The notes below the pieces were generated by a model, which was given only the letters and a program-made list of their open reading frames with translations, was not told the DNA's origin and ran no database searches. This document shows, piece by piece, positions 54-62,794 of a stretch of DNA of 64,000 nt. Origin of the DNA: an uncultured Mycoplasmatota bacterium. GTDB taxonomy: Bacteria > Bacillota_I > Bacilli_A > RF39 > UBA660. The translations under genes and the position numbers were made by a program. The stretch is from the NCBI GenBank assembly GCA_947649365.1, contig CANSRH010000008.1, positions 1,795 through 65,794 on the forward strand, in the 5' to 3' direction. Position 1 is the first letter of the stretch; every line of letters begins with the position of its first letter.

Positions 54-965
54 ATGATTTCTTTGTATGAAGCACAAATTCATAGTACGGGAATTGAATT
101 AATCGATCTTTTAACTTGTCTCCATAAAGCAGAAAATCCTGTTTTTTTGACACAAAAAATTGTGGATGACCTTTCTACTATGTTGTATGAGTGTATGCTT
201 TTAGAAATTTGTTATAAAAAAACACATTTTCTTTTTGATGTGGTAAAAAAATCTAAAATCCCTTTTTCTTCTATTGAAAAAAAGATAAAAGAAGATCTTT
301 TTCTAGAAAATATAAAAAATGATTTTTCTATTCTTAAGGATTTAGATGAAGAATTGTTGATGTTTCTTGGTAATAGAAAAATGCGTCAACTGAAAGAAAA
401 TTATCTTTTACAAGTTCATTTGTATGATAGTTTGAATAGAGATTATTTAAAGCAAGAGGACAAGGAAATTATTTTTAAAATTAAAGACGTGAAAAAGAAG
501 AAAAATAGAATTAAACTTCAACAATGGAAACGATTTTTGTTTGGTTTATTTTGTTTAGGAATAGTGAATCTGGGATTGTTCAATCTGTTTTTGGATGTGG
601 GAAAAGATGGAGAATTTTCTAAAGAAAAAAATATAGAATATGAAAATTTTACATTGTTACAAGAAGATAATTTATTGTCTCATAATTTCTTTTTTTCAGG
701 AACGGTGATTTTTGATTTGTTTTCTATTTACATCATTCATTTGAAAATGAAAACAGAACCTTTTGAAAAAGATAACGAAGAGATTGAAAAAACATTGTGT
801 GAATTAGAATGTGCTTTGGAAAGAGAAATTAATCAAAAAAAACAACAAAGAAATCATTTAATAGAAAGAAAAGAGCAACTAGATAATGACTTTCAACGGC
901 TTCCTTTAAGTATTCAAGAAGAAATAACAAGAGCCCTTCGTAAAAATAATACATCAACTTTTTGA
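54..965 (+). CDS. hypothetical protein (303 aa), no recognisable domain; may start upstream of window edge
   Basis: Long ORF with weak RBS. Has one hydrophobic segment (FLFGLFCLGIVNLGLFNLFL) and a coiled-coil-like acidic C-terminus. Ends in TGA. Confidence 0.45.
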   Translation: MISLYEAQIHSTGIELIDLLTCLHKAENPVFLTQKIVDDLSTMLYECMLLEICYKKTHFLFDVVKKSKIPFSSIEKKIKEDLFLENIKNDFSILKDLDEELLMFLGNRKMRQLKENYLLQVHLYDSLNRDYLKQEDKEIIFKIKDVKKKKNRIKLQQWKRFLFGLFCLGIVNLGLFNLFLDVGKDGEFSKEKNIEYENFTLLQEDNLLSHNFFFSGTVIFDLFSIYIIHLKMKTEPFEKDNEEIEKTLCELECALEREINQKKQQRNHLIERKEQLDNDFQRLPLSIQEEITRALRKNNTSTF

Positions 966-1047: not shown

Positions 1048-2955
1048 ATGACAAAATACGATGCATCGTCGATTAAGATATTGGAAGGTTTAGAAGCCGT
1101 AAGAAAACGACCTGGTATGTATATTGGTTCTACCGATAAAAGAGGTTTACATCATTTGATTTGGGAAATTGTTGATAATGCCATTGATGAAGTGATTAAT
1201 GGCTATGGAGATACAATTAAAATCACATTAAATTCTGATGAATCGATTACCATCAGTGATAATGGTCGAGGAGTTCCTATTGGAATGCATGAATCCGGGA
1301 AATCAACACCTGAGGTTATTTATACTGTGCTACATGCAGGTGGAAAATTTGAGAGTGACGGCTACAAAGTAAGTGGTGGATTACATGGTGTTGGTGCTAG
1401 TGTTGTTAACGCTTTGTCTAAAAGAATGGATGTTACAATTTATACTGATGGAAAAATTAGTAATATACGATTTTGTGATGGAGGGCATGTCGAAAGTCCT
1501 TTAAAAACAATTGGAGAGACAAAAAAGACAGGAACAACGGTAACATTTTTACCAGACTATGAAATGTTTAAAAATTCTAGCTTTTCTTATACAACCATTG
1601 TAGAGCGGATGCAAGAGAGTGCTTTTTTGCTTCCTAATTTAAAAGTAGTGATTGAAGATACTGCGGATAATAAATCTTGTGAATTCCATTATGAAAATGG
1701 CTTAATGAGTTTTGTTGAATATATCAATGAAGGAAAGAAAACGTTACATAAAGTAATTTCTTTTAATGGTATAAAAAGTGAGATAGAAGTTTCAATTGCC
1801 CTACAATATAGTGAATCGTATAATGAAAATATTTTGAGTTTTGTAAACAATGTTAAAACGGGTGATGGAGGAACTCATGAGGTAGGTTTTAAAACTGGAA
1901 TTACAAAAGCTTTCAATGATTATGCGAAAGCAAATAATTTGATTAAAGGGAAAGAGGGTAATTTAGAAGGTAGCGATGTTAGGGAAGGCTTAAGTGCGGT
2001 CATTAGTTTAAAAATTCCTGAGAAATTGTTGCAGTTTGAGGGTCAAACCAAAGGAAAGCTTGGAACACCAGAAGCAAAAAGTATTACAGAATCGATTACG
2101 TATGAAAATTTAAAATTCTTTTTAGAAGAAAATAAAGAAGTTGCTTTATCAATTTTAGATAAAGCATTAAAAAGTAAAAGTGCAAGAGAAGCTGCAAGGA
2201 AAGCTCGTGAAGCTGTACGTAAAGGAACGGGAAAAAATTCCAAAGAACGTGTTTTAAGTGAAAAGTTAGCTAAGGCAACGGGAAGAGATTATAAGAAAAA
2301 TGAACTTTTTTTGGTGGAAGGAGATAGTGCAGGAGGGTCTGCTAAATCGTTTCGAAATAGAGAGACTCAAGCCATCCTTCCTTTGCGAGGAAAAGTTTTA
2401 AATTGTGAGAAGGCAAGTACTCATGATATTGAAGCCAATGCAGAATTAAAACAAATCGAATACGCAATTGGAGCAGGTTTAGGTGCTGACTTTGATCCAA
2501 AGGATTCTAATTACGGAAAAGTCATTATCATGACCGATGCCGATGTCGATGGGTCTCACATTCAAATCTTACTTATTACATTCTTTTACCGGTTTATGCG
2601 TCCTTTAATTGAAGAGGGAATGCTTTATATTGCAACTCCTCCTTTGTATTCGATTGAAGTTGGAAACAAAGGAAAAGAGTATATTGCAGATGATGAAGAA
2701 TTGGCAGAACGAAAGAAAACTTTAAAAGGAAATTTTAAAATTCAACGTTTTAAAGGACTTGGAGAAATGAATGCTAATGAACTTTTCGAAACAACGATGG
2801 ACCCAGCAAACCGAAGGCTTTTACGCGTTAACTTAACGGATGCCGCTTTGGCAGAAAAACGAATTCATCTTTTGATGGGAGACCAAGTAGAACCAAGAAA
2901 AGAATGGATCAATGAAAATGTTGATTTTACTTTGGAAGATGATTTTAGGAAGTGA
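1048..2955 (+). CDS. parE: DNA topoisomerase IV subunit B (GyrB/ParE family ATPase)
   Basis: N-terminal GHKL ATPase motifs (LEGLEAVRKRPGMYIGS, EIVDNAIDE). TOPRIM motifs (LVEGDSAGGSAK, IMTDADVDGSHI). Immediately upstream of a ParC/GyrA-like gene. Length of 635 aa fits ParE. Confidence 0.85.
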   Translation: MTKYDASSIKILEGLEAVRKRPGMYIGSTDKRGLHHLIWEIVDNAIDEVINGYGDTIKITLNSDESITISDNGRGVPIGMHESGKSTPEVIYTVLHAGGKFESDGYKVSGGLHGVGASVVNALSKRMDVTIYTDGKISNIRFCDGGHVESPLKTIGETKKTGTTVTFLPDYEMFKNSSFSYTTIVERMQESAFLLPNLKVVIEDTADNKSCEFHYENGLMSFVEYINEGKKTLHKVISFNGIKSEIEVSIALQYSESYNENILSFVNNVKTGDGGTHEVGFKTGITKAFNDYAKANNLIKGKEGNLEGSDVREGLSAVISLKIPEKLLQFEGQTKGKLGTPEAKSITESITYENLKFFLEENKEVALSILDKALKSKSAREAARKAREAVRKGTGKNSKERVLSEKLAKATGRDYKKNELFLVEGDSAGGSAKSFRNRETQAILPLRGKVLNCEKASTHDIEANAELKQIEYAIGAGLGADFDPKDSNYGKVIIMTDADVDGSHIQILLITFFYRFMRPLIEEGMLYIATPPLYSIEVGNKGKEYIADDEELAERKKTLKGNFKIQRFKGLGEMNANELFETTMDPANRRLLRVNLTDAALAEKRIHLLMGDQVEPRKEWINENVDFTLEDDFRK

Positions 2956-3079
2956 GAAAGTGTTTATTGTTTGGAAAAAGAATTAGGGAAGTCTGTAATT
3001 AGTAATAAAAATAAATTAAACTGTCAATATATAGAAGAAGAAAGTTTTAATAATAAAAATAAAAAAACAGGTGAGAAGT

Positions 3080-3775
3080 ATGGAATATGTTTATCACGGT
3101 AGTAAAATTCAAGGATTAAAAATACTAATTCCGCATAAGTCAACACATGGAACATATGTGTATGCGACTAAAATCAAAGCAATAGCAATTATAATGTCAA
3201 AAAGATGTGGTGATGATGCGACATATAGTTTAGGGTCGAATGAAGGTGATAAACTAGATTTAATTGAAAGATTACCTAATGCTTTTGAAAAAATGTTTTC
3301 GAATAAATTTTCGTTATATACATTAGATAGTGCATTATTTAAAAATATAAATACTGGATTTGATGAAGTTGTATCAGAAACTGAAGTTCCAGTTATAAAA
3401 GAAGAAACGTATCTAAGTTTAATAGATGCTATAAATAAATTAGTTGATAATAATTTAATTAATATATATTATTACCCTGATAGACCTAATTATATTCCAG
3501 AGGATGATAGTGATTTAATTGATAAAGTTAGAAATCTTTATATAGGAAAAATGCATAAACAATATACAGATAGAGAAATTGCTCGTTGGATTTTTTTACA
3601 TCCTAATTTGGAAGATGAATTTAGAATTCTTGCAAAAGAACAAAATATTAATGTACCGAGTTATGATGAAATAAAAAAGATATTCATTAATGCTCAAAAA
3701 GAAAGACCAGAACATGAAATGTATATTGATAATGCATTAGAAATATATGAACTATATAATAAAAAAAGGAGATAA
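3080..3775 (+). CDS. hypothetical protein (about 231 aa) inserted between parE and parC; no recognisable domain
   Basis: ATG at 3080 with AGGTGA RBS at 3068-3073; the ORF track's GTG at 3071 lies inside the RBS. AT-rich, N/K/Y-rich composition differs from the flanking topo IV genes. Confidence 0.55.
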   Translation: MEYVYHGSKIQGLKILIPHKSTHGTYVYATKIKAIAIIMSKRCGDDATYSLGSNEGDKLDLIERLPNAFEKMFSNKFSLYTLDSALFKNINTGFDEVVSETEVPVIKEETYLSLIDAINKLVDNNLINIYYYPDRPNYIPEDDSDLIDKVRNLYIGKMHKQYTDREIARWIFLHPNLEDEFRILAKEQNINVPSYDEIKKIFINAQKERPEHEMYIDNALEIYELYNKKRR

Positions 3776-3776
3776 A

Positions 3777-3941
3777 ATGCCTAGATATTCATGGATGACA
3801 GAAATAGTTGAGGATAGCATTGATGCTGTGGGAGATATTTTTGCCTATGCAAAAATTCATTTTAGAACCGAGGAAGTTTATAAAAAGATAGAAGAAATAA
3901 CAAATATTGTAAAGAATGAATTAAAAGAGTTCATTGTTTAA
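3777..3941 (+). CDS. small hypothetical protein (54 aa), acidic; possible partner of the upstream gene
   Basis: ATG at 3777 preceded by AGGAGA RBS. It sits 1 nt after the stop of the upstream ORF, so the two look translationally coupled. Confidence 0.4.
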   Translation: MPRYSWMTEIVEDSIDAVGDIFAYAKIHFRTEEVYKKIEEITNIVKNELKEFIV

Positions 3942-3959
3942 AAATGGAGAAGTGATAAC

Positions 3960-6473
3960 ATGCCAAAGAAAAAAGAAGTAAAAGAAATTATAGAAAAAAT
4001 TTATGACTATAGTTTAGAAGAAATTATGGAGACTGGATTTGGAAGATATTCTAAAGAGATTATTCAAGAACGTGCATTACCAGATGTTCGTGATGGATTA
4101 AAACCAGTGCAAAGAAGAATATTGTATTCGATGTTTATTTCCGGATTCAAACATGACAAACCACATCGAAAAAGTGCGAGAGCGGTTGGAGATATCATGG
4201 GTAAATTCCATCCACATGGAGATTCTTCTATTTATGAAGCTTTGATTCGTATGAGTCAAAACTGGAAAATGCGAGAAACTTTGATTGATATTCATGGAAA
4301 CAATGGTTCCATTGATGGGGATGGGCCAGCTGCTATGCGTTATACAGAAGCTCGTCTTACGCGTCTTGCAGAAACACTTCTTACTTCTATTCCTAAAAAT
4401 ACAGTGGAAATGGCATGGAATTTTGATGACGAAGAAAAAGAACCAACCGTTCTTCCTGCAACATTCCCTAATTTACTTGTGAATGGCTCTACAGGGATTA
4501 GTGCAGGGTATGCGACCAATATCCCTACCCATAATTTGGCAGAAGTAATTGATGCTACCATCAAGCGAATTGATTCCCCTAGTTGTCGTTTGGAAACGAT
4601 TATGGAACTTTTACCAGGTCCGGATTTTCCAACGGGTGGTGTGATTGAAGGAAAAAATGGTTTAATTGATGCTTATACCAAAGGAAAAGGAAAAGTGGTT
4701 TTAAAAGCAAAAACTGAAATTGTGAAATCGGGAAGCAAACAACAAATTATCGTTCATTCGATTCCTTATGAGGTAATTAAAGAGCAATTGATTAAAAAAA
4801 TTACAGAGATTAAATTGGATAAAAAAATAGAAGGAATCAATGAAATTATTGATGAATCGGATCATGAACATATGGCTCGTATTGTCATTGATTTAAAGAA
4901 AGAAGCCAATGCTGAGCTGGTTCTTAATTATTTATTTAAAAATACGGATTTGCAAGTGAATTATAATTTTAATATGGTTGCCATTGTGAATCGTCGTCCA
5001 AGACTTGTTGGCATTTTGGAAATTTTGGATGCGTTTATTAATCATCAAAAAGATGTGATTACTAGAAGAACAGAATGGGATTTAAAGAAAGCAAGATTTG
5101 ATTATCATATTTTGGAAGGTTTGGTAAAAGCCATTGATATTTTGGATGAAGTGATTCGTATTATTCGGGGTAGTAAGAATAAGAGTGATGCGATTGCTAA
5201 TTTATCTTGCGAATACGATTTTACGTTTGAACAAGCAAAAGCCATTGTAGAATTACAACTTTATCGTTTGACGAATACGGATATTGTCGCTTTACAAGAA
5301 GAAATGGAGAAGCTTCGAAAAAATATTCAAATTTGGGAGCAAATTCTGAGCAATGAAGAGGCTCTTAAATATGTCATGAAAACAGAGTTAAAGGCAATTA
5401 AAAAAGAGTATGGAAATCCAAGAAGAACAGAAATTAAAGCAGAAGTTACAGAAATTAAGTTGGATATGCTGGATATGATTCCTAAGGAAAATGTGGTCGT
5501 TGTCGTTACAAATGAGGGCTATATGAAACGAGTAAGTAGCAAGTCCTATGCATCTCGTGGAGAGGAAATGACCACACTAAAACCAGGAGATTTTATTATC
5601 GGACTTTATGAAGTAACGACATTGGATACGATTGTAGCGTTTACTAATTTAGGAAATTATTTGTATATTCCAGTGCATAAAATACCAGAAGCAAAATGGA
5701 GGGAACTTGGAAAACATGTAAATAATATCGTATTCTTGTCCTCAGAGGAACAAATGGTTGCTTCGTTTGTGTTCGATAAGGAAAAAGAAATTGTTACTGT
5801 TTCAAAATATGGAATGATTAAAAGAAGTCGTATGGCAGAATATGAGGTGACAAGGTATTCCAAACCACTCCTTGCTATGAAGTTAAAAGATGGAGATGAA
5901 GTGGTAAGTGTTGTAACTGCTAAATCCAATTGTCTACTTGTAAGTAGTGATGGCTATTATGTTCAGTTTGCCAAAGAAGAAATTCCTCTAACAGGAGTTA
6001 AGGCAGCTGGTGTTAAAGGAATGAATTTGAAAGACGATTTTGTTGTTTCTGGGGTTTCTTATGATGCAGCAGATTATTTGGATGTGTTTACGAATCAAAG
6101 AACTGCCAAACGAATGAAAATCGCTGATTGTCTATCAACAGGACGTGCAAAACGGGGAAATACTTTAATCAAAAAAGTAAAGTCTGTGAATTATCAAATT
6201 ATTCAAGCCTTTCTTATGGAGTCTCGGGATGTTGTACTTCTTAAATCAGATAGTGAAATTCGAGAATTAAAAAATAGTGATATTGCAATTTTGGATACAG
6301 CAAGTACAGGTTCTGTTATTTCTAAGTACAAAATTGATGATGTTTCTAAAAAAGTGAATTTGGAAAGTTATTTAAAAAAAGAAAGCAAACAAGAAGAAAA
6401 TAGTTCTGGTGAAAAAGAAGTAAAAATTAAAGAATTTACGATGGATGATTTTTTGGACGATTTTAAGATTTAG
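3960..6473 (+). CDS. parC: DNA topoisomerase IV subunit A (GyrA/ParC family)
   Basis: Motifs RALPDVRDGLKPVQRRILY and HPHGDSSIYEALIRMSQ with active-site Tyr context (AAMRYTEARL). C-terminal beta-pinwheel region present. 837 aa. Confidence 0.85.
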   Translation: MPKKKEVKEIIEKIYDYSLEEIMETGFGRYSKEIIQERALPDVRDGLKPVQRRILYSMFISGFKHDKPHRKSARAVGDIMGKFHPHGDSSIYEALIRMSQNWKMRETLIDIHGNNGSIDGDGPAAMRYTEARLTRLAETLLTSIPKNTVEMAWNFDDEEKEPTVLPATFPNLLVNGSTGISAGYATNIPTHNLAEVIDATIKRIDSPSCRLETIMELLPGPDFPTGGVIEGKNGLIDAYTKGKGKVVLKAKTEIVKSGSKQQIIVHSIPYEVIKEQLIKKITEIKLDKKIEGINEIIDESDHEHMARIVIDLKKEANAELVLNYLFKNTDLQVNYNFNMVAIVNRRPRLVGILEILDAFINHQKDVITRRTEWDLKKARFDYHILEGLVKAIDILDEVIRIIRGSKNKSDAIANLSCEYDFTFEQAKAIVELQLYRLTNTDIVALQEEMEKLRKNIQIWEQILSNEEALKYVMKTELKAIKKEYGNPRRTEIKAEVTEIKLDMLDMIPKENVVVVVTNEGYMKRVSSKSYASRGEEMTTLKPGDFIIGLYEVTTLDTIVAFTNLGNYLYIPVHKIPEAKWRELGKHVNNIVFLSSEEQMVASFVFDKEKEIVTVSKYGMIKRSRMAEYEVTRYSKPLLAMKLKDGDEVVSVVTAKSNCLLVSSDGYYVQFAKEEIPLTGVKAAGVKGMNLKDDFVVSGVSYDAADYLDVFTNQRTAKRMKIADCLSTGRAKRGNTLIKKVKSVNYQIIQAFLMESRDVVLLKSDSEIRELKNSDIAILDTASTGSVISKYKIDDVSKKVNLESYLKKESKQEENSSGEKEVKIKEFTMDDFLDDFKI

Positions 6474-6520
6474 AGAGATAAAAATCACTTATTTGCATAT
6501 ATTGTAATAGGTGATTTTTT

Positions 6521-6877
6521 ATGGCAACAAAAGATGATTTTAAACTTTTTGCTAGAAAACATCCAGAACTTGTTCGTTTTATTCAAAATGGTGAGGCAAG
6601 TTGGCAAAAGTTTTATGAAATTTATGATATTTATGGGGAAGAGGAGTCTGCTTGGCAACCTTATTTTGCAAAACAAACTACTTCTAGTACGGATTATAGT
6701 TTTAAAAGTATTACCGATAAGATTAAAAATATTGATTTGAATTCGATTCAAGAACATATTACTACTGCTCAAAAAGCACTAGGAATTGTGCAAGAGCTAA
6801 CGGGAAAAGGAAGTAGTGCTGCTGCAGCGACTGAAGTGGTTAGTCCGCGTCCAATTAATAAAATATTTGAGGATTAG
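6521..6877 (+). CDS. ylbD: YlbD-like small protein (putative coat/cytosolic protein family)
   Basis: N-terminal FARKHPELVRFIQNGEASWQKFYEIYDIYGEEESAWQPY resembles the B. subtilis YlbD family. Followed directly by a ylbE-like gene, as in Bacillus. Confidence 0.5.
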   Translation: MATKDDFKLFARKHPELVRFIQNGEASWQKFYEIYDIYGEEESAWQPYFAKQTTSSTDYSFKSITDKIKNIDLNSIQEHITTAQKALGIVQELTGKGSSAAAATEVVSPRPINKIFED

Positions 6878-7099
6878 ATGGATTTATTCGTACAGCAAAA
6901 ACTTTTGGAAGATAAAAAAATGGATGGCTTTTTGAAAGAAAACTCTTACTGGATTAAAGAGTTGAATCGCAATGGGGAAAATTACAAACAATTTGTAGCA
7001 GCTATGAAGGATAAGTATCGCTTGAAAACGACAGATCGTATTAGCGATGCAATTGATCATATTGATTTGATTAGTGGGATATTAGACACTTTAAAATAA
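6878..7099 (+). CDS. ylbE: YlbE-like protein
   Basis: SYWIKELNRNGENYKQFVAAMKDKYRLKTTDRISDAIDHIDLISGIL fits the YlbE-like small protein family. Adjacent to ylbD-like, which is conserved synteny. Confidence 0.5.
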   Translation: MDLFVQQKLLEDKKMDGFLKENSYWIKELNRNGENYKQFVAAMKDKYRLKTTDRISDAIDHIDLISGILDTLK

Positions 7100-7106
7100 T
7101 AATTCG

Positions 7107-7135
7107 TTGACCCATCTTTATTCTTGAGGTATAAT
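7107..7135 (+). promoter_or_regulatory. sigma-A promoter: -35 TTGACC (7107-7112), 17-nt spacer, -10 TATAAT (7130-7135)
   Basis: Near-consensus hexamers read directly, about 20 nt upstream of the pilin-like gene RBS. Confidence 0.55.
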
Positions 7136-7154: not shown

Positions 7155-7610
7155 ATGGTAGTCTGTATGGGTGTGAAAAATAATAGAGGTTTTACTTTGG
7201 TTGAATTATTAGCAGTTATTGTTATATTGGCAGTTATTATTTTGATAGCTTCTAATAATGTGGGAAGTATTATGATTGATGCTCGTAAAAATGCTTTGGC
7301 TTTGGAAGGAAGTACATTGATTGATGCTGCTAAAACTGCTTATCAGATTGATATTTTGAATGATGGTATTACAGGCTCAAAATGTTATAATTTAGAAGAA
7401 TTATACAAAGAGGGATATTTTAGTAAAGGAAAAGATAAAGACGGATATACTGGAAGTGTACTTGTTGATACTAGCAACGAAAAAATTATTGAATATACGT
7501 TTTGGATTAGTAATGGGAAATATGTAGTTAGTGGTCCAGCAGGTACGACAGGAAAAAATGCCACTGCAGGAACGGAAGCATCTAAGTGTTGTGGTGGAAC
7601 TTGTTCTTAA
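7155..7610 (+). CDS. prepilin-type N-terminal cleavage/methylation domain protein (type IV pilin / ComGC-like pseudopilin)
   Basis: KNNRGFTLVELLAVIVILAVIIL is a class III signal with a G|FTLVE prepilin peptidase site. Start may be the ATG at 7167. The C-terminus ends in a Cys-rich tail (KCCGGTCS). Confidence 0.75.
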   Translation: MVVCMGVKNNRGFTLVELLAVIVILAVIILIASNNVGSIMIDARKNALALEGSTLIDAAKTAYQIDILNDGITGSKCYNLEELYKEGYFSKGKDKDGYTGSVLVDTSNEKIIEYTFWISNGKYVVSGPAGTTGKNATAGTEASKCCGGTCS

Positions 7611-7668
7611 GAAGAGATAGGCTTCTTTTTTTTTCTTTTTTATGAGATAATAGTTTTAGGTGAAGTGT

Positions 7669-8547
7669 ATGATTTTAGGTTGTCATGTTAATTTTACAAA
7701 TGAACAATTGCTTGGAAGTACAAAACAAGCTCTTTCTTATGGCGCGAATGCTTTTATGTTTTATACGGGAGCACCTCAAAATACCATGCGTAAATCTTTG
7801 GATATGGATTTGACGAAACAAGCTTGGAGTCTTATGAAGGAAAATCATATTGATTTGAAACATGTGATTTGTCATGCCCCTTATATTGTTAATTTGGCTA
7901 ATAACAAAGAGGAAGAAAAATGGCAATTTAGCATTCATTTTTTAAAACAAGAATTAAAACGTTGCAAAGAATTAGGTGTTTCTTATATTGTTGTTCATCC
8001 TGGAAGTGCAGTTGGTATTGAAAGAGAAACGGCTTTGCAAACTATTAGTAAAGCTTTGAATTGTATTATAGAAGAGGATGGAGTCATGATTTTGCTTGAA
8101 ACCATGGCAGGTAAGGGGACAGAATGTGGCTCTTCTTTGGAAGAAATAAAAGTTATTTTGGATGGGGTAGAATCTAAAAATATTGGTGTATGTTTGGATA
8201 CTTGTCACTTGAATGATGCAGGATATTCCATTCAAGAATTTGATTTACTTTTGGACGAAGTAGAAAAGGTCATTGGTTTAGAAAAAGTACATTGTGTACA
8301 TTTGAATGATAGTAAAAATCCAATGGGAGCACATAAAGATCGACATGAGAATATAGGACTGGGGACAATTGGTTTTTCTGCTCTTTCTTATGTAGTTCAA
8401 CATGAAAAATTAAAAGATGTTCCTAAAATTTTAGAAACACCTTATGTAGAGCGTGCCTACCCACCTTATCAATTTGAAATTGAAAGTTTAAAGGCAGGAC
8501 ATGAAAATCCACATTTACTTTCAGATATTATGAATTTTTATAAATAA
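7669..8547 (+). CDS. nfo: deoxyribonuclease IV (endonuclease IV, AP endonuclease family 2)
   Basis: LGCHVNF..GANAFMFYTGAPQNT..HAPYIVNLA..VVHPGS..HLNDSKN motifs match the Nfo TIM-barrel metal ligands. ATG at 7669 with AGGTGA RBS. Confidence 0.85.
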   Translation: MILGCHVNFTNEQLLGSTKQALSYGANAFMFYTGAPQNTMRKSLDMDLTKQAWSLMKENHIDLKHVICHAPYIVNLANNKEEEKWQFSIHFLKQELKRCKELGVSYIVVHPGSAVGIERETALQTISKALNCIIEEDGVMILLETMAGKGTECGSSLEEIKVILDGVESKNIGVCLDTCHLNDAGYSIQEFDLLLDEVEKVIGLEKVHCVHLNDSKNPMGAHKDRHENIGLGTIGFSALSYVVQHEKLKDVPKILETPYVERAYPPYQFEIESLKAGHENPHLLSDIMNFYK

Positions 8548-54105: not shown

Positions 54106-54116
54106 GAGTGATATAT

Positions 54117-55286
54117 GTGAAGGTAGTACATATATGTTTAGGGAATTTTTATATTGATAATTATTCTTATCAAGAAAATATGTTACCAAAATATCATAAA
54201 AAGTTAGGCTATGATGTTGAAATAATAGCCTCGTTAATGAGTTTTGATAAAAATGGAAAACGATCTTTTTTAGAAACTGAAAAGGTTTATGAAAATGAAA
54301 ATGGAATCAAAGTTACAAGATTGGAATACAAAAAACCTCAATTGATTTTTAAAAAGTTAAAAAGATATGTTGGTACTTATAAAATTCTAAAAGAATCGAA
54401 ACCAGATATTCTTTTTATTCATGGATGTCAATTTTTAGATATGTCCATTATTGTAAAGTATTTAAAAAAATATCCGATTGAAAAAGTATATGTAGATAAT
54501 CATGCAGATTTTTCAAATAGTGCTACCAATTTTTTATCTAAAAATATTTTACATAAAATTTTTTGGAAACACACTGCTCAAATAATAGAACCTTATACTC
54601 AAAAATTCTTTGGTGTTTTGCCTGCAAGAGTAGAATTTCTTCAAAATATTTATAAAGTACCTACTAATAAATGTGAGCTATTAATTATGGGAGCAAATGA
54701 TGAGCTTATTGAAAAATATTGTAATGAGAAAAGTCGTGAAACTTTTAGAAATCTTTTAGGAATTAAGAAAAATGATTTTGTAATTGTGACTGGTGGAAAA
54801 ATAGATAAATCTAAAAAGCAAACATTATTTTTAATGAAAGCAATAAGAAACATGAATGCTACCAATATAAAATTGTTTATTTTTGGATCTATTGCAGTAG
54901 AGATAAAAAAAGAATTTGAAAACTTATGTTGTGAAAATATTAAATATATAGGATGGGCAAATGAAGAAGAGTCCTATAAAAATTTTTCTATAGCGGATTT
55001 GGTAGTTTTTCCAGGTCGACATTCTGTTTATTGGGAGCAGGTTGTAGCTATGGGTATACCAATGATTTGCAAGTTTTGGGAAGGAACGACTCATGTGGAT
55101 ATTGGTGGGAATGTAAAGTTTTTGAATGAAGATAGTGAAAAAGAAATTAAAAGGAATTTAGAAGAGATTATTTATAATCCAGAAGTTTATGAAAATATGT
55201 GTAAAAACGCCACAAAAAAAGAAAAAAATACTTTTTTATATAGTTATATAGCTAAAAAAAGTATTGGAGAAATAACAAATGATTAA
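54117..55286 (+). CDS. glycosyltransferase (GT-B, GT4-like)
   Basis: Probable GTG start at 54117, 8 nt after AGGAG. C-terminal VVFPGRHSVYWEQVVAMGIPMI resembles the GT4 E-x7-E region. Confidence 0.5.
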   Translation: MKVVHICLGNFYIDNYSYQENMLPKYHKKLGYDVEIIASLMSFDKNGKRSFLETEKVYENENGIKVTRLEYKKPQLIFKKLKRYVGTYKILKESKPDILFIHGCQFLDMSIIVKYLKKYPIEKVYVDNHADFSNSATNFLSKNILHKIFWKHTAQIIEPYTQKFFGVLPARVEFLQNIYKVPTNKCELLIMGANDELIEKYCNEKSRETFRNLLGIKKNDFVIVTGGKIDKSKKQTLFLMKAIRNMNATNIKLFIFGSIAVEIKKEFENLCCENIKYIGWANEEESYKNFSIADLVVFPGRHSVYWEQVVAMGIPMICKFWEGTTHVDIGGNVKFLNEDSEKEIKRNLEEIIYNPEVYENMCKNATKKEKNTFLYSYIAKKSIGEITND

Positions 55287-56184
55287 GTTTTTTTATGAAT
55301 TAACTGTCAAACTAAAACAAAAAAATATGAAGGTATGGCCGTGGTTTTATAAAATAAATAAAGTGATTATTAATTTATTTTATCCTTGCTTTCAATTTTT
55401 TAATAAAAAATATGGATTGGATGAAAATAGTAGTGTTATTGTTTCTTTGACATCATTTCCAGAAAGAATAAATATAGTATGGCTCACAATTGCGACCATA
55501 TTGAATCAAAATCTAAAACCAAAGAAAATAATTTTATGGTTAGCTCAGGATCAATTTCCTACACATAAATTACCCTATAGCTTGAAAAGATTGTGTAAAA
55601 GAGGATTGGAAATACAATATTGTGAAGACTTAAAACCTCATAAAAAATATTTTTTTACAATGAAGAATTATAAAGAGTCATTTATAATAACTATTGATGA
55701 TGATATGTTGTATCCGGAAGATTTTATTGAAAACTTGGTAAAGAATGTTAAAAAATATCCAAATACTATAATTTGCAATTGGGCTCATAAAATTACTTTT
55801 GATCAAAAAGGTGATTTTAATCCGTATAAATTATGGGTACATTCTAGTAATGAGGTAGGGAAGCTTATTGTTCCTATTGGATGTTGTGGTATATTGTATC
55901 CTCCTAATTCATTAAATTTAGAAGTTTTTGAAATTGAAAAAATTAAAAAATTAGCCTTTTATTGTGATGATTTATGGTTGAAATGTATGGCGTTAAAAAA
56001 TAATACGTTGGCTGTAAATGTTAATTTGAATGACCTAATATTTTTTAATAATTTAAGAAATCAAAAATCAGGTTTGTGGAAACATAATACTTTAGGAGAA
56101 AATAGAAATGATAAAGTTTGGTCTGATTTGATGGATGCATATAAAGAGTTAGAAGAACTTATGAAAGGAGAAATTAGAAAATAA
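55279..56184 (+). CDS. putative glycosyltransferase (capsular polysaccharide synthesis protein family, DxD)
   Basis: VSLTSFPERI...TIDDDMLY is a GT-A-like DxD arrangement, as seen in Caps_synth-type transferases. Confidence 0.45.
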   Translation: MIKFFYELTVKLKQKNMKVWPWFYKINKVIINLFYPCFQFFNKKYGLDENSSVIVSLTSFPERINIVWLTIATILNQNLKPKKIILWLAQDQFPTHKLPYSLKRLCKRGLEIQYCEDLKPHKKYFFTMKNYKESFIITIDDDMLYPEDFIENLVKNVKKYPNTIICNWAHKITFDQKGDFNPYKLWVHSSNEVGKLIVPIGCCGILYPPNSLNLEVFEIEKIKKLAFYCDDLWLKCMALKNNTLAVNVNLNDLIFFNNLRNQKSGLWKHNTLGENRNDKVWSDLMDAYKELEELMKGEIRK

Positions 56185-57344
56185 TGAAAAAAAAGATGTT
56201 ATTATTTTTTATTATTTTATTTTTGCTAAAGCCTACTGGTTTAGAAGAGCTTTCACCTATTTTAAATTCTTTCATGAATGTTTTTAGATTAATCTCTATG
56301 ATACTAATATTATTATTATATATACTTAATCTAAAGAATAAAAGGGTACGATTAAATAAATACATTATTTTAATCTTTATAATTGAAGTACTTAGTATTA
56401 TTTGTTGTCTTTATAATAAACAATCGTGTTATAATGCTATTGTTTATTGGCAAGGAATTTTATCTTTAATGTTGCTAGCGGAAATTGAATTAAAAAATAT
56501 TTTAGACTTTATAAGAATTTTAATTGCAGTTTTAGGGACATATGTTTTAATCAATTTTCTCTATATATTATTTATCTATGACTATATAAATTATAATACA
56601 ATTTTTATTTTAGGTAAAAAAAATATGATTATATTGTATGTTTTTCCTTTTATTTATTTTTTGCTTCATTTGTATTCTGTTACTAAAAATGGAAAAAAAT
56701 CAATTTTTCTAATATTAATGATATTAATTTCATTGTTTTCTATTTATGTCACTTCTTCTGCAACATCTATATTTGCTTGTGCTATTTTGTTTGTTTATTT
56801 TATTTTTCAGAATAATGCTTTGATAAATAGAGTTTTGACAAAGATAACTGCAAAGAAAATATTGTATATCATTTTTACTTTTTTCTTACTTATAATTGTA
56901 TTTGAAATTCAAAAATATTTTTCTTTTCTTATTAAAATTTTAGGAAAAGATTTAACTTTTACAGGTAGAACTTTTATTTGGAATCGAGTTATACAATTAA
57001 TTCGAGCGAATCCGTTTGGTTATGGTTGGAATTCTTCTGTACCAGATGTAGTATCTTTATTGAATTGGAATGAGACTTTAAGTATCGGTCATGCCCATAA
57101 TTATATTTTAAATTTAGTTTATAAAGCTGGAATTATTACGGCAATTGTTTTTGTAATCTATTTGTTTGGTATTGCGAAAAGAATAGATACGTGTTCTAAT
57201 CGTAAATTGTCATCTTTGATGAAAATCACCTTTTTTATATTTCTGCTGCTTGCGATGTTTGAATCTTACCCGACAAATTGTATTTGTTTATTTTTTATCT
57301 GTTATATATTTATCAATAATAATTATACCTATAAAAAAGATTGA
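56184..57344 (+). CDS. wzy: polysaccharide polymerase (Wzy / O-antigen ligase-like) integral membrane protein
   Basis: At least 10 TM segments. A large extracytoplasmic loop holds the conserved His pair (SIGHAHNYILN). Location inside a GT-rich locus. Confidence 0.6.
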   Translation: MKKKMLLFFIILFLLKPTGLEELSPILNSFMNVFRLISMILILLLYILNLKNKRVRLNKYIILIFIIEVLSIICCLYNKQSCYNAIVYWQGILSLMLLAEIELKNILDFIRILIAVLGTYVLINFLYILFIYDYINYNTIFILGKKNMIILYVFPFIYFLLHLYSVTKNGKKSIFLILMILISLFSIYVTSSATSIFACAILFVYFIFQNNALINRVLTKITAKKILYIIFTFFLLIIVFEIQKYFSFLIKILGKDLTFTGRTFIWNRVIQLIRANPFGYGWNSSVPDVVSLLNWNETLSIGHAHNYILNLVYKAGIITAIVFVIYLFGIAKRIDTCSNRKLSSLMKITFFIFLLLAMFESYPTNCICLFFICYIFINNNYTYKKD

Positions 57345-57411
57345 TTATTTAATAAGTTTTAATGAGGTGTTTTTGAATTAATCCCTAGTTTGATGAAAGG
57401 AGAAAGCTTAT

Positions 57412-58617
57412 ATGAAGAAAGTGTTAATTATCAGTGGAAATCGACAACCTATTCCACCTATACAAGGTGGGGCTGTAGAAAATCTTGCACAAATGTTTAT
57501 TGATAGTAATGAATGTTATAATCTTTTTGAAATAATCGTGATTTCGTGTTTTCCAAAAGCTAAAATTGATGTATCCAATTATAAAAAAGTAAACTATTTT
57601 TTTGCTTCGGAGGAGTTTAAAACAAATAAGAGTTTAATGTATATAAATTTATTTTTAAGTAAAATTTTTCACAAAACTTTTGTATTTTCTTCAAGATATT
57701 CTAAATTTGTAATAGATAAGATAAAAAAAGAAAATATTTCTTTTGATTCAATTATCGTTGAAAATTATATTGAGGCAGTTTTACCTTTAAGAAGTGCTTT
57801 TCCAGATAAAGAAATATTTTTGCATTTGCATAATGATAAACTAAATGAAAGTGTTTTAAATGGTAAACGAATTGTAAAAGCATGTAATAAAATAATTACA
57901 GTTAGTGACTATATAAAAACACGAGTGGATTCAATTAAAAATGCTTCTCAAAAAAGTGTAACTTTAATTAATTCGATAGAAGTGAGTAAATTTGGAACTT
58001 TGGAATCTCGAAAAAAAGGAGAAGCATTACGTGAAAAATATAATATAAGTAATGACGAATTTTTGATTTTATTTACGGGTCGTATAGCAAAAACAAAAGG
58101 TGTTTTGGAATTGATAAAAGCTTTTTCGATGTTAACAAATTTAAAAAGTAAATTGGTAATAATTGGTAATTCATGGTATGGAAAGGGAATGCCAAATGAT
58201 AAATATATGCATGAATTATGTAAAGCTACCAATAAAATAAAAGACAAAATAATTTTTACTGGATACGTTGATTATAATAGAATTCAAGAGTATTATTCAA
58301 TGGCTGATTTAGTTGTTATTCCATCCATTTGGCAGGAACCTTGTTCATTGACTTTATTTGAAACCATGGCTTCAAATGTTCCTTTAATCACAACCAATAC
58401 AGGAGGAACTGTACAAATTGTTAAAGATTATGCTATAGTGTTAGACGTTAATAAGCAATTTATTTCAAATCTTTCAATGGAAATTGAGAAAGCTTATGAA
58501 AATTATAAATCAATGAAAAAACGCGCAGAAGCTGCTTTTAAATATGTCCAAGGTTTTAACCCAGAACATTATTATAAGGAAATGGCTTATATTATTGAAG
58601 GAGAAATGAATAAGTGA
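57412..58617 (+). CDS. glycosyltransferase family 4
   Basis: EPCSLTLFETMASNVPLITT is the E-x7-E motif. Confidence 0.7.
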   Translation: MKKVLIISGNRQPIPPIQGGAVENLAQMFIDSNECYNLFEIIVISCFPKAKIDVSNYKKVNYFFASEEFKTNKSLMYINLFLSKIFHKTFVFSSRYSKFVIDKIKKENISFDSIIVENYIEAVLPLRSAFPDKEIFLHLHNDKLNESVLNGKRIVKACNKIITVSDYIKTRVDSIKNASQKSVTLINSIEVSKFGTLESRKKGEALREKYNISNDEFLILFTGRIAKTKGVLELIKAFSMLTNLKSKLVIIGNSWYGKGMPNDKYMHELCKATNKIKDKIIFTGYVDYNRIQEYYSMADLVVIPSIWQEPCSLTLFETMASNVPLITTNTGGTVQIVKDYAIVLDVNKQFISNLSMEIEKAYENYKSMKKRAEAAFKYVQGFNPEHYYKEMAYIIEGEMNK

Positions 58618-59717
58618 AAAGAGTAGTCCAATTTGGTATGACTCCCAATTATGGTGGAGTAGAAGCATTTATAATGAATCTTTATCGAAATCTTAATCAT
58701 GAAGAAATACAATTTGACTTTTTTGTGAACTCAAATTCTCCTATTTCTTATGAGGATGAAATTAAATCTTTGGGTGGTAGAATAATACATCAACGTTTTG
58801 TCTCTAGGAAAAAAAATCCATTTAAACATTATAAAGAATTATTTCAATATTTTAAAGAAAATCCAGATATAATTGCTGTGCATTTAAATAAAGCAAATAT
58901 TAGGGATATTGATTTATTAATTGTTGCAAAACTTATGAAAATTCCAGTTAGAATTATTCATTCTCATATTGATAATCGTCTTCAAAAGTTACAATTTTTT
59001 GAGAAAATAAATCAAAAATTATTAAAATGTGTAACGACTCATTTGCTTGCTTGTTCATATGAAGCAGGAAACTACATGTTTGGAAAACTAGATTATCAAG
59101 TTATAAAAGATGGTGTAAATATCCAAAAATTTCAGTTTAATAAACTTTATAGAAGTCAAATAAGAAAACAATTGAATATTTTGGATGATGAATTTGTAGT
59201 AGGTAGTATTGGAAGATTTTGTGAACAAAAGAATACTTTATTTTTATTAGATATATTTTTTGAAATTTATAAAGAAGATAAAAATAGCAAATTGCTTTTG
59301 ATTGGTAATGGTCCTTTGAAAACAGAAGTAAATAAAAAAATATATGATTTTAATTTACAAGATAATGTTATTTTAATAGATGAAACAATAGAAGCTAATA
59401 AATACTATTCCGCTATGGATATATTTTTATTTCCTTCCTTGTATGAAGGATTTGGTATGGTTTTATTAGAAGCTCAAATTTCAGGATTAAAATGTATAGC
59501 TTCTAAGGATGTTATTCCTGAATTAGTTGATATTACGAAAGAAATTGAATATGTTTCGTTAACATCAACTGCTAAATGGTGGGCCAATTGTGTTTCTAAA
59601 TACAAAAAAATAAAAAGATATGATAAAGTGAATTTAGTAATAAATGCAGGTTTTGATATAAATGATATTGCTGAACAATTGGAAAAAATATATCGAGAAG
59701 GTGAAATAAATGAATAG
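58614..59717 (+). CDS. glycosyltransferase family 4
   Basis: FPSLYEGFGMVLLEAQISGLKCI is the E-x7-E motif. Confidence 0.7.
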   Translation: MKRVVQFGMTPNYGGVEAFIMNLYRNLNHEEIQFDFFVNSNSPISYEDEIKSLGGRIIHQRFVSRKKNPFKHYKELFQYFKENPDIIAVHLNKANIRDIDLLIVAKLMKIPVRIIHSHIDNRLQKLQFFEKINQKLLKCVTTHLLACSYEAGNYMFGKLDYQVIKDGVNIQKFQFNKLYRSQIRKQLNILDDEFVVGSIGRFCEQKNTLFLLDIFFEIYKEDKNSKLLLIGNGPLKTEVNKKIYDFNLQDNVILIDETIEANKYYSAMDIFLFPSLYEGFGMVLLEAQISGLKCIASKDVIPELVDITKEIEYVSLTSTAKWWANCVSKYKKIKRYDKVNLVINAGFDINDIAEQLEKIYREGEINE

Positions 59718-61218
59718 AAGTAAAAGTGCAATCAGAAATGTATTTTTTTCTATAATTTCGGCATTTGTTTCTTTAATATTAACCTTAATCAATCGTAAAG
59801 TTTTATTGTATTTTTTAGGATCAGAAATGTTAGGATATGAAAGTTTATTTGCAAACATTTTTTCCGTGCTATCATTGACAGAAATGGGTGCAGGGACAGT
59901 TATATCTTATCAGTTATATAAAAGTGTTGCTGAAAAAAATCAAGAGGAAACAAATCATTTAATTTCAATATATAAGTATTTATATAGAATTGTTGGTATT
60001 TTAGTTTTTGTAATAGGCATATTTTTATTCTTTTTCTTGGAATACATTGTAAAAAATCCTACATCCTCTTTTGTTTTTATACAAAAAATATATTTAATTC
60101 AATTATCAGCGACTGTTGTTTCTTATTTTTTAGGCTATAAAAGAATGTTGTTTATTTCAGATCAAAAAGAATTTGTAATTACTAAAATTGACATATTCAT
60201 TAATTTTATTTCGCAAATTTTGAAAATTGCAATCATAGCTTTTTTTCAAAATTATATTCTTTATTTAATAGTTACTGTTGGAAAGGCTATTATTGTAAAT
60301 TTAATAGTAAATTGGAAAGCGAAAAAGTATTATTCCTCATATCAATATATAAAAGTTAAAAGAGAACATTTAAAAGAGCGGAAAATTTTTAAAGACATGT
60401 TCCATTTTTTATCTCAAAAAATATCGGGGACAATTTATTACAATACAGATAATATTTTGATTTCTATGATATTAGGAGTGTCCACAGTGGGGATTTATTC
60501 AAATTATTATATGATAAAAACTCAAGTTTTTCATTTAACTACTAAATTATTTAATCCTATTCAATCCTCTATTGGAAATTTTATTAATGATCCTAATAAG
60601 AAAAATCAAGGTGAGTCTTTATTTAATGCGTTAGAAATTATTAGTTATAGTTTTGCATTGATTTTTGCCTGTTGTTTGTATAATATATTACAGCCTTTTA
60701 TAGAATTATGGTATGGAAAAAACTATTTGCTTTCTCATATGGTTGTTTTATTAATTACAATAAATGCCTATATAGAGACCTTACGAGAAATTCCTTATTA
60801 TTTTAGAAGTGCTTTTGGACAATATGAAATAGATAAAAAATATATGTTTATAGGTGCATTTTTAAATATTGTTTTGTCTATTATTTTAGGAAAAATTTTT
60901 GGTTTAGTTGGAATTTTAGTGGGAACTATAATTGGGATGATTTTTTTATGGCATGGTGTAATCTATTTTATACATAAAATTTATTTAGGAAAGAGTTTAA
61001 TAACTTATTATTTTAAACATTTGAAATATAGTATTTTCTCTTTTTTGGTAATATTTATTTGCAATAAAATTTGTTCATTCATTATAATTTCTGTTTTTGG
61101 TATAATTGTAAGAGTTCTAATATGTGTATCGCTTCCTTTGATTGTTATCATTTTTCTATTTAAAAATACGGAGTCTTTTCAATTTTACAAAAATATATTA
61201 AATAATTATAGAAAATAG
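59710..61218 (+). CDS. wzx: polysaccharide repeat-unit flippase (Wzx, MOP/MATE superfamily)
   Basis: 12-14 TM protein with Wzx-like length, located next to wzy and the GTs. Confidence 0.65.
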   Translation: MNRSKSAIRNVFFSIISAFVSLILTLINRKVLLYFLGSEMLGYESLFANIFSVLSLTEMGAGTVISYQLYKSVAEKNQEETNHLISIYKYLYRIVGILVFVIGIFLFFFLEYIVKNPTSSFVFIQKIYLIQLSATVVSYFLGYKRMLFISDQKEFVITKIDIFINFISQILKIAIIAFFQNYILYLIVTVGKAIIVNLIVNWKAKKYYSSYQYIKVKREHLKERKIFKDMFHFLSQKISGTIYYNTDNILISMILGVSTVGIYSNYYMIKTQVFHLTTKLFNPIQSSIGNFINDPNKKNQGESLFNALEIISYSFALIFACCLYNILQPFIELWYGKNYLLSHMVVLLITINAYIETLREIPYYFRSAFGQYEIDKKYMFIGAFLNIVLSIILGKIFGLVGILVGTIIGMIFLWHGVIYFIHKIYLGKSLITYYFKHLKYSIFSFLVIFICNKICSFIIISVFGIIVRVLICVSLPLIVIIFLFKNTESFQFYKNILNNYRK

Positions 61219-61321
61219 TAAGAAGTAACAATTTGTTTTTTATTCAAATGTAAAGAAAATATACATTTATTATAATATTTTTGAAAGTAAAATAGAAAAT
61301 ATATGTTACAATAATCAGAAG

Positions 61322-62794
61322 TTGAAGGAGTTACTTATGAAAGAAAAAAAAGAAATCATTTTAAAAGTTTTAAATATTTTAACAATAATATTTTTTGGTA
61401 TAAGTTCAGGATTATTTGTTTTTGGGTTAATTAAATTAAATATTATTCCTACAAAATACTTGTTTGTTGGTTTTAGTATTGTACTATTCACTTTTGCAGC
61501 TTTATTTTATTTTATATTTAGTAAAAAGAAGAAAATTAGTAAAGTTGTTGCTCTAATAGTTGCAATATTATTTTCGATTTTATTTATAGCTGGTACAAAC
61601 TATTTAGATAATACTTATCATTTTTTTGAAAATACAACAAAGCAAAACTATGATACTTTAGTTTATTCTATATTAGTTTTAAATGAAAAAAATTATAATG
61701 AAATCAGTGATTTAAATGAAAAAAATATTTTGTATTTAAATGACGATTATAAAGAAGATGTGATAAAAGAATTAGAAAATAAAATTAACTATGAAGAATT
61801 AACTTTTGATACATTTGGCGGAATGGGAGAAGCACTTTTAAATGACGAAGTTGATGCAATTGTTATAGAAGAAAGCTATATGCTTTTAGCAAAAGAAGAA
61901 GTCGAAACATTTGAAGAAAAAACAAAAGTTATTTATACTTTTGAGGTGCAAGTAAAATCACATAAAGAGGATCCAGAAGAAAACGAAAACATTCATATTA
62001 ATAGCATTGATACACCATTTATTTTATATATTAGTGGTATAGATACTTCTGGGAATATAAAAAATTCTAGAAGTAGAAGTGATGTGAATCAATTGGTTGT
62101 AATTAATCCAAAAACAAATCATATTTTGCTTGTAAATACCCCAAGAGATTATTATGTACAACTTGCTGGTACAAGTGGTTTAAAAGATAAGCTTACTCAT
62201 GCTGGTGTGTATGGTATTGATAAAAGTATTAAAACATTAGAAAATTTTTATAATATTGATGTTCGTTATTATGTAAGAGTTAATTTTACAAGTTTAATTA
62301 AAATAGTTGATGTTATTGGTGGTATCGAAGTAGAAAGTGATAAAGAATTTGATTCTAATTATTTAAAAGGTTGGCATGTTTTAAAAGGCTTGAATCATAT
62401 GGATGGAAAAAAAGCACTTGCTTATTCTCGTGAACGTTATGCGTATGTTGATGGTGATCATCATCGTGGAAAAAATCAACAGGCAGTCTTAACGGCAATT
62501 ATTAATAAAGTAACCAATTCTAAAGTATTAATTAGTAAATACAATAGTATTTTAAAAGCTTTGGAGGGAAGTTTCCAAACGGATATGCCTATGGAAGAAA
62601 TGACATCTTTTATTAAATATCAATTGGATAAAATGCCTTCTTGGAAGATTGAGTCGATTGCTGTTACTGGAACGGGAGATATGCAACCAACTTATAGTAT
62701 GGGTTCAAAATTAAAGCTTTATGTTATGAACCCAGATATGGGAAGCGTTGCTAAAGCAAAAGAAAAAATAAATGAGGTTTTCAATGAAGGGTAA
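61322..62794 (+). CDS. LytR-CpsA-Psr (LCP) family phosphotransferase
   Basis: N-terminal TM and accessory domain, then an LCP core (SDVNQLVVINPKTNHILLVNTPRDYYV, HAGVYG, RERYAY..GDHHRGKNQ). Confidence 0.75.
   Translation: MKELLMKEKKEIILKVLNILTIIFFGISSGLFVFGLIKLNIIPTKYLFVGFSIVLFTFAALFYFIFSKKKKISKVVALIVAILFSILFIAGTNYLDNTYHFFENTTKQNYDTLVYSILVLNEKNYNEISDLNEKNILYLNDDYKEDVIKELENKINYEELTFDTFGGMGEALLNDEVDAIVIEESYMLLAKEEVETFEEKTKVIYTFEVQVKSHKEDPEENENIHINSIDTPFILYISGIDTSGNIKNSRSRSDVNQLVVINPKTNHILLVNTPRDYYVQLAGTSGLKDKLTHAGVYGIDKSIKTLENFYNIDVRYYVRVNFTSLIKIVDVIGGIEVESDKEFDSNYLKGWHVLKGLNHMDGKKALAYSRERYAYVDGDHHRGKNQQAVLTAIINKVTNSKVLISKYNSILKALEGSFQTDMPMEEMTSFIKYQLDKMPSWKIESIAVTGTGDMQPTYSMGSKLKLYVMNPDMGSVAKAKEKINEVFNEG

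Follow-up and report, generated by a model that had tools for sequence, protein, structure and literature searches.

A solitary accessory gene flanked by gene remnants in a mosaic insertion between parE and parC of an uncultured bacterium

Do two tightly coupled open reading frames (ORFs) that separate the topoisomerase IV genes parE and parC constitute a functional pair, or did they reach this site independently of each other? This question is raised by a stretch of 64,000 nucleotides from an uncultured Mycoplasmatota bacterium (assembly GCA_947649365.1, contig CANSRH010000008.1, positions 1,795 to 65,794), hereafter referred to as the window, in which ORF1 of 231 aa and ORF2 of 54 aa are situated between both genes. 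A first-pass annotation, made from the sequence alone, had interpreted them as what looks like an addiction or defence-type module or another selfish insertion. Its description of the layout was confirmed: a single nucleotide separates the stop codon of ORF1 (TAA, 3773-3775) from the ATG of ORF2 (3777), and each ATG start is preceded by a ribosome-binding site (RBS), GGTGAG 6 nt upstream of ORF1 and AGGAGA 4 nt upstream of ORF2. The alignment of homologues (MEYVYHGS...) places the start of ORF1 at the ATG at 3080 and not at the upstream GTG at 3071. In-frame codon usage of both ORFs is coding-like. As stated in the annotation, neither protein contains a recognisable domain, since nothing above threshold was obtained for ORF1 and ORF2 in Pfam, NCBIfam, PADLOC, and PHROGs. 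The two-gene interpretation itself does not hold. We find a derived, mosaic insertion in which an intact gene under purifying selection, occurring as a solitary gene elsewhere, lies between remnants of two other genes. The account as a whole, comprising ORF1 as the sole functional cargo with a likely N-terminal domain similar to the rifampin ADP-ribosyltransferase Arr, and ORF2 not being its partner, is the one we favour with reasonable, though by no means complete, confidence.

A one-genome-per-species scan with the ParE sequence of the window resulted in 80 loci, all of them from metagenome-assembled genomes (MAGs) of uncultured gut Bacilli, with ParE identities of 71-92%. In 69 of these loci parC is also included in the fetched stretch, and as expected for topoisomerase IV genes the gap between parE and parC does not exceed 50 nt in 61 of the 69, the genes often overlapping or nearly so. 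The check for presence or absence of the pair in relatives, suggested in the annotation, gave a uniform answer, as neither ORF1 nor ORF2 was detected by tblastn in any of the 80 loci. In both L022 and L023 the uninterrupted junction reads ...AGGAAGTGATAACATGCC... (...TTTAGGAAGTGATAACATGCC...), and positions 3949-3990 of the window align to it as well as to other relatives. The uninterrupted sequence of L022 is AGGAAGTGATAACATG, and its GAAGTGA borders the insert of the window on either side as a 7-nt direct repeat, the left copy (2949-2955) representing the end of parE and the right copy (3949-3955) being located just before the TAAC-ATG of parC. The insert thus delimited comprises approximately 1,000 nt (2956-3955). 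Due to the tight junction in relatives and the uninterrupted sequences of L022 and L023, it is derived and not ancestral; it is lineage-specific and co-directional with both flanking genes.

Apart from the 7-nt flanking repeat, the only boundary feature is an imperfect direct repeat (17 of 21 nt) of doubtful significance at the inner edges of the insert (2957-2977 and 3924-3944), which adjoins the exact GAAGTGA copies in the order X-Y ... Y'-X'. This imperfect repeat may be due to chance, given ten similar two-copy families within the same 1.1 kb. No recombinase, integrase, transposase, tRNA, or att-like site was found in the insert, and it does not qualify as an insertion sequence, transposon, integron cassette, or prophage.

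On the plus strand, the terminator scan revealed no terminator-like site in the interval between parE and parC, and the promoter scan of the insert revealed none as clear as those located 5' of ORF1 homologues elsewhere. The Rfam scan of window positions 2700-4200 did not return an RNA family. Because of the missing terminator and the lack of a comparably clear promoter, transcription of the insert most likely starts at the parE promoter and reaches it by read-through, and parC would remain expressed. The expectation of the annotation that an insertion at this site must preserve parC expression is in good agreement with a derived, co-directional insert that lacks a terminator. Of the 59 ORFs with 100 aa or more in the window, 56 are encoded on the plus strand, and such extreme co-directionality implies that any in-line insertion would automatically be read through. 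The annotation had also described both ORFs as more AT-rich than the flanking genes. This holds only in part: the GC content of ORF1 (25.5%) is the fifth lowest of 59 genes (mean 30.6, standard deviation 3.4), whereas ORF2 with 29.6% is average for the genes of the window, and with 34-35% parE and parC simply rank among the genes richest in GC.

The left part of the insert is homologous to cargo found at the same position in a relative. Positions 2971-3042 encode LEKELGKSVISNKNKLNCQYIEEE, of which 15 out of 24 residues are identical to residues 254-277 of a 290-aa protein of L011 (tblastn E 3e-4), with 77% identity over 70 nt at the DNA level. This protein matches Bro-N (PF02498), and its gene sits at the same parE-parC junction. 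L011 is the closest relative, with a parE 92% identical to that of the window. Judging from these alignments, the segment is a remnant of the kind of cargo still present at this junction in L011.

The limits of the adjacent ORF1 unit were deduced from a comparison with six loci that contain ORF1 homologues (L008 and L157-L161), where DNA homology starts approximately 30 nt before the ORF1 start and ends between 3768 and 3777. In detail, blastn matches extend over 3046-3773 in L158 (89% identity), 3052-3776 in L157, and 3050-3777 in L008, and nothing is matched beyond. The fact that homology stops at the ORF2 ATG or slightly short of it speaks for a recombination breakpoint and against a co-inherited pair.

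For ORF2, no homologue besides its own copy was found among 5.8 billion proteins, and a tblastx comparison of the ORF2 region to 90 loci and the window recovered L010 only. A relationship to the HIT family surfaced via the neighbours of ORF1 homologues. Over 49 aa, ORF2 shares 47% identity with the C-terminal part (residues 110-158) of a 159-aa protein of L118 (E 8e-16 in the pairwise comparison, 2e-13 against the neighbour set). The L118 protein is a HIT protein (PF01230, 30.3 bits with a cut-off of 21.5, domain at 27-114) with the histidine triad motif HLHVWIMPRH, and ORF2 starts at a Met right after the triad. ORF2 itself has no Pfam HIT match and contains neither the HIT domain nor the triad HxHxHxx. 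Since its sole detectable relative is the C-terminal tail of the L118 HIT protein, ORF2 is probably what remains, at the 3' end, of a HIT gene that was truncated, i.e., a gene fragment and not a member of the family. The apparent RBS of ORF2 is made up of the last codons of ORF1 (AAA AAA AGG AGA TAA). ORF2 may still be translated, though without the catalytic domain.

In the proposed scenario, the insert would thus be composed of three pieces, namely the 3' remnant of a Bro-N gene, the intact accessory gene ORF1, and the 3' remnant of a HIT-family gene, and at least two insertions or deletions would have led to its present state. Their order is a matter of inference; the parE-parC spacer of this group would repeatedly have acquired unrelated small genes. 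Gene-bearing inserts occur at the same junction in five other species and are different in each case (Table 1). In seven further species, other genes follow parE for at least 4.7 kb, parC not being included in the fetched stretch. Within this group of gut Bacilli, the parE-parC junction recurrently serves as a landing site. By visual inspection, one of the neighbourhoods in which parE is followed by other genes appears to contain an ORF6N-type gene and subsequently ArsR and metal-ATPase genes. Likewise by eye only, genes resembling Bro-N, KilA-N, ORF6N, or RhuM DNA-binding genes recur directly after parE, in L059 (~5914-6804), L065 (~7202-7906), and L089 (~6198-7109).

ORF1 belongs to a large family. 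One search yielded at least 202 homologues, and a second one 310 representative clusters at E <= 1e-3. They originate from MAGs of Erysipelotrichales, Bacilli, and Candidatus Coprovivens and, wherever a source gives them a name, are designated as hypothetical proteins. Ratios of nonsynonymous to synonymous substitution rates (dN/dS) of 0.15-0.24, calculated for ORF1 and five homologues, imply that the gene is maintained by purifying selection. Homologues with 45-84% identity are situated in at least eight unrelated, mostly co-directional contexts, e.g., 3' of rplS-lepB, 5' of tatD, following an HD gene, in the midst of GNAT genes, and close to FTHFS and GrpB genes. None of the homologues examined is located between parE and parC. 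Several are preceded by a TATAAT (-10) element of their own, and one is followed by its own terminator.

In approximately 70 loci with ORF1 homologues, the next downstream gene varies in size from 32 to 988 aa, in spacing from 4 to 375 nt, and also in family, and neither a conserved small downstream ORF nor an ORF2-like gene was observed across these loci. The 150 neighbour proteins of ORF1 homologues match 109 Pfam families, of which only GNAT recurs (6 out of 150), and no macrodomain or recurrent antitoxin-type family is found among them. The closest homologues are directly followed by RhuM, ASCH, a split GrpB, and unrelated proteins without known function. ORF1 had no match in phage, plasmid, and viral-contig collections, and no second copy is present in the window. 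ORF1 is a solitary accessory gene and not one half of a module. Members of its family are repeatedly fused to a GNAT acetyltransferase, at either end, or to a P-loop kinase (AAA_18/SKI-like), as found among P0021, P0024, P0160, P0174, P0247, P0123, and P0135.

Some observations around the homologues deserve separate mention. The gene directly after the homologue in L157 (1853-2335) encodes RhuM (PF13310, E 4.5e-37). In L160 (5820-6322), the GrpB gene 3' of the homologue is split into ORFs of 89 and 63 aa, which is another sign of gene decay around accessory units. Two genes upstream of the homologue in L003, considered as ORF1 paralogues, were ruled out by hmmsearch, and a 32-aa ORF after the homologue in L158, considered as a NUDIX fragment, found no Pfam support.

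The AlphaFold2 model of ORF1 is of high confidence (pLDDT, the predicted local distance difference test score, is 94.3 when the full protein is modelled and 93.5 with residues 1-143 only) and is composed of a mixed beta/alpha N-terminal domain (approximately residues 1-143) and a helical C-terminal part (144-231). Among PDB structures, Foldseek ranks Arr first for the full as well as for the domain-only model, with probabilities for 2HW2 and 9IAF of 0.94-0.95 (full model) and 0.85-0.94 (domain), of 0.47-0.60 for 9IBA, and of at most 0.15 for every other structure, at E-values of only 0.02-0.03 and a template modelling (TM) score of about 0.4. Arr belongs to the H-Y-D enzymes and has a diphtheria-toxin-like fold (PMC8120803). 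With regard to the toxin or immunity folds that the annotation had envisaged, ORF1 may have a fold of the ADP-ribosyltransferase (ART) type, which some toxins use.

A profile alignment by hhalign to 113 Arr sequences places residues 1-131 of ORF1 collinear with residues 17-150 of Arr and pairs the YHGS motif of ORF1 with YHGT of Arr and YVYAT with HIYFS; the signal is weak (score 18.9, P 0.003-0.04), and 4 out of 200 column-shuffled controls reached the real score. In 74 sequences of the family, E63 and F87 are invariant and H6, Y28, Y80, and E96 are conserved to at least 90%. H6 (in YHGS) is situated on the predicted strand 3-8 and Y28 (in YVYAT) on the strand 24-30, which fits the H-Y-E/D clade of ARTs with its conserved His on strand 1 (HG[ST]) and Tyr on strand 3. 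D84 of Arr is aligned to a gap in ORF1, and E96 of ORF1 is located at the start of the strand 96-99. ART-PolyVal (PF18760) is matched below threshold by two members of the family (best 18.9 bits compared to 31.2), the match of P0200 covering residues 4-48. Similarly, 22 out of 47 members match DUF6886 (PF21820) below threshold over approximately residues 42-124, with 25.8 bits at best and 13.8 bits for ORF1 at a cut-off of 27, and the ORF1 family is distantly related to this Pfam family. DUF6886 is without known function, and a literature search on it found no papers.

Considering these signals together, it is rather likely, on the basis of the predicted model, that the N-terminal domain of ORF1 has an ART-like fold. 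The most serious alternative is that the likeness to Arr is spurious and that ORF1 is an intact accessory protein with another role, enzymatic or not, in which case the insertion, the remnants, and the solitary distribution would be unaffected. We regard this as distinctly less probable, but of appreciable weight. In its favour, all the ART evidence is below threshold: ORF1 has no match to PF12120 (Arr-ms) and does not reach the gathering thresholds of PF12120, PF21820, and PF18760; hhalign to a two-sequence Arr profile is not significant; and searches of PDB sequences with profile hidden Markov models of the ORF1 family return neither Arr nor another ART. Furthermore, the nearest Pfam family is DUF6886, and the best matches in the viral fold search in BFVD are mostly uncharacterised proteins. 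On the other hand, four independent weak signals agree, as Arr is the sole fold of high probability in two separate models, the collinear alignment pairs the His and Tyr motifs with few shuffled controls reaching its score, ART-PolyVal is matched below threshold, and polar H, Y, and E residues are conserved or invariant. Due to the fact that each threshold was missed, ORF1 is not assignable to Arr, DUF6886, or ART-PolyVal, and its family is at most a new, divergent family of the ART superfamily.

If the ART-like fold is real, the N-terminal domain of approximately 140 aa would represent a minimal ADP-ribosyltransferase like Arr, in which NAD+ binding would fall to H6 and Y28, with an invariant glutamate (E63 or E96) as the catalytic acid. 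ADP-ribose would be transferred to a target harmless to the host cell, most likely a small molecule or xenobiotic, as in case of Arr. Among small molecules, only rifamycins are known to be targeted by ADP-ribosylation (bioRxiv 10.1101/2025.02.20.639278). The fusions to GNAT and P-loop kinase modules and the lack of an immunity partner make a small-molecule or otherwise non-self-toxic target likelier than a role as toxin, an assignment that we put forward as tentative. It is tempting to go further and to speculate that the family comprises unrecognised minimal Arr-like ADP-ribosyltransferases acting on a small molecule, for instance an antibiotic, a drug, or a metabolite of dietary or host origin, and that these and other single genes move as bare one-gene units into spacers between essential co-directional genes by an undescribed mechanism; that both should be true is doubtful.

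The interpretation that ORF1 and ORF2 constitute a toxin-antitoxin, addiction, or defence pair, ORF1 being a toxin (e.g., an ADP-ribosylating one) and ORF2 its antidote, possibly a co-opted HIT tail, is improbable in the light of these data, and the candidacy as proposed in the first-pass annotation should be dropped. It draws on the stop/start spacing, the RBS of both ORFs, the acidic nature of ORF2 (isoelectric point 4.8), the foreign origin of the segment, and the suggested ART fold of ORF1, a fold used by the toxins DarT and ParT (PMC8120803). However, a conserved pair is not found. Besides its own copy, ORF2 is related only to a HIT enzyme, and there only to the tail, the supposed partner being a probable gene fragment; no ORF2-like or other conserved partner accompanies ORF1 homologues, some of which are monocistronic with promoter and terminator of their own; macrodomain or antitoxin-type neighbours do not recur; and DNA homology to other ORF1 loci stops at the start of ORF2 or slightly before. 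PADLOC lends no support either, with no match for ORF1 or ORF2 and four isolated weak ones across the 74 family members. The fact that ORF1 is a solitary chromosomal gene argues against self-toxicity.

A functional tie to topoisomerase IV, with ORF1 modifying ParE or ParC or inactivating a topoisomerase-targeting compound, is more improbable still. Resistance or protection genes sometimes adjoin the genes of their targets, and ORF1 would be co-transcribed with parE and parC in view of the interval free of terminators. However, all other ORF1 homologues examined are located elsewhere (rplS-lepB, tatD, HD, GNAT, FTHFS, and other contexts) and in other species unrelated genes occupy the junction (thymidine kinase, NUDIX, GNAT, and Bro-N/KilA-N genes), so that the location of ORF1 looks incidental. 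Equally improbable is an assembly chimera with parE and parC truly adjacent in this organism: the genome is absent from the public gene-position collection and the left junction lacks a second, independent assembly, but the tail of ORF1, ORF2, and the start of parC, i.e., the right-hand junction only, are found at 100% identity in the independent 1,052-bp contig L010 (SRR15510223), the Bro-N remnant matches the cargo at the same junction in L011, and a real insertion is in accordance with the GAAGTGA repeat at its flanks and with a parC spacer that is preserved.

Apart from the insert, the vicinity of the operon and the remainder of the window include further features. Directly upstream of parE, a 303-aa ORF (54-965, plus strand) with 25.9% GC was found, which has no Pfam match, is without homologues in the 80 related parE loci, and is probably another lineage-specific gene beside the operon. 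As in most relatives, YlbD-like (PF14071, E 4e-18) and YlbE-like genes are situated 3' of parC, followed by a gene encoding a 151-aa protein with an N-terminus that by eye resembles the prepilin type; these features were noted at 6521-7099 and 7155-7610. At 54108-62794, eight successive genes on the plus strand have a very low GC content (22-26%) and may constitute an island of the surface-polysaccharide type.

Table 1. Features of the parE-parC locus in the window and gene-bearing inserts at the same junction in other species.
Feature	Sequence	Coordinates	Strand	Evidence or content
parE, topoisomerase IV subunit B	window	1048-2955	+	TIGR01058, 916.7 bits
Bro-N family gene 3' remnant (pseudogene fragment)	window	2971-3042	+	match to L011 Bro-N protein
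ORF1 unit, gene and ~30 nt upstream	window	3046-3777	+	DNA stretch common to ORF1 homologue loci elsewhere
ORF1, 231 aa, intact gene of an unannotated family	window	3080-3775	+	homologues, dN/dS, AlphaFold2 model
ORF2, 54 aa, probable 3' tail of truncated HIT-family gene	window	3777-3941	+	match to L118 protein
Ancestral spacer between parE stop and parC RBS, GAAGTGA (3949-3955) then TAAC	window	3949-3959	+	alignment to uninterrupted junctions
parC, topoisomerase IV subunit A	window	3960-6473	+	TIGR01061, 967.2 bits
Insert	L011	6921-9272		2.4 kb: 189-aa protein of unknown function, Bro-N protein, KilA-N protein
Insert	L012	3353-3900		disrupted GNAT gene
Insert	L018	6905-7174		83-aa ORF of unknown function
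Insert	L035	4491-5080		NUDIX gene
Insert	L040	6899-7520		thymidine kinase gene

ORF1 represents a member of a large protein family of gut Bacilli that is named in no database and has a confident predicted structure. If the link to Arr is true, the family would be a candidate for the modification of drugs or xenobiotics by gut commensals, and, should a small molecule indeed be its target, it would be the second after Arr known to ADP-ribosylate one, sometimes in fusion with acetyltransferase or kinase modules. Irrespective of this, the locus clearly illustrates accessory-gene turnover in streamlined, strongly co-directional genomes, where essential operons take up single genes in their spacers; these genes are transcribed by read-through and degenerate into short fragments that stay in frame. 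A fragment of this kind can mimic a coupled small partner, and caution is required when two-gene modules are called from sequence alone.

With respect to known systems, the combination of a possible ART-fold protein and a tightly coupled small acidic ORF resembles DarT-DarG, ParT-ParS, and type II toxin-antitoxin pairs. In contrast to these, the partner of ORF1 is not conserved, a macrodomain or DNA-binding antitoxin and a PADLOC match are lacking, and the homologues are solitary. ORF2 resembles the C-terminal 49 residues of a bona fide member of the HIT family, but the whole HIT domain including the HxHxHxx motif is missing. In case of Arr (PF12120), the sole PDB fold matched by the N-terminal domain of ORF1 with high probability, the size is alike (~135-140 aa), H19 and Y49 pair with H6 and Y28 of ORF1, and both are solitary genes without an immunity partner. 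Unlike Arr, to which it has no significant sequence similarity, ORF1 has an additional helical C-terminal region of approximately 90 aa and no aligned counterpart of the catalytic Asp84, its family having the invariant E63 and the conserved E96 instead, and it occurs in gut Bacilli and not on integrons or plasmids. Finally, integration hot spots and accessory-gene islets differ from the parE-parC junction, where the units are single genes in-line in an essential operon and no integrase, transposase, tRNA, or att-like site is present; like them, however, this junction holds unrelated cargo in each species together with decayed remnants of earlier cargo.

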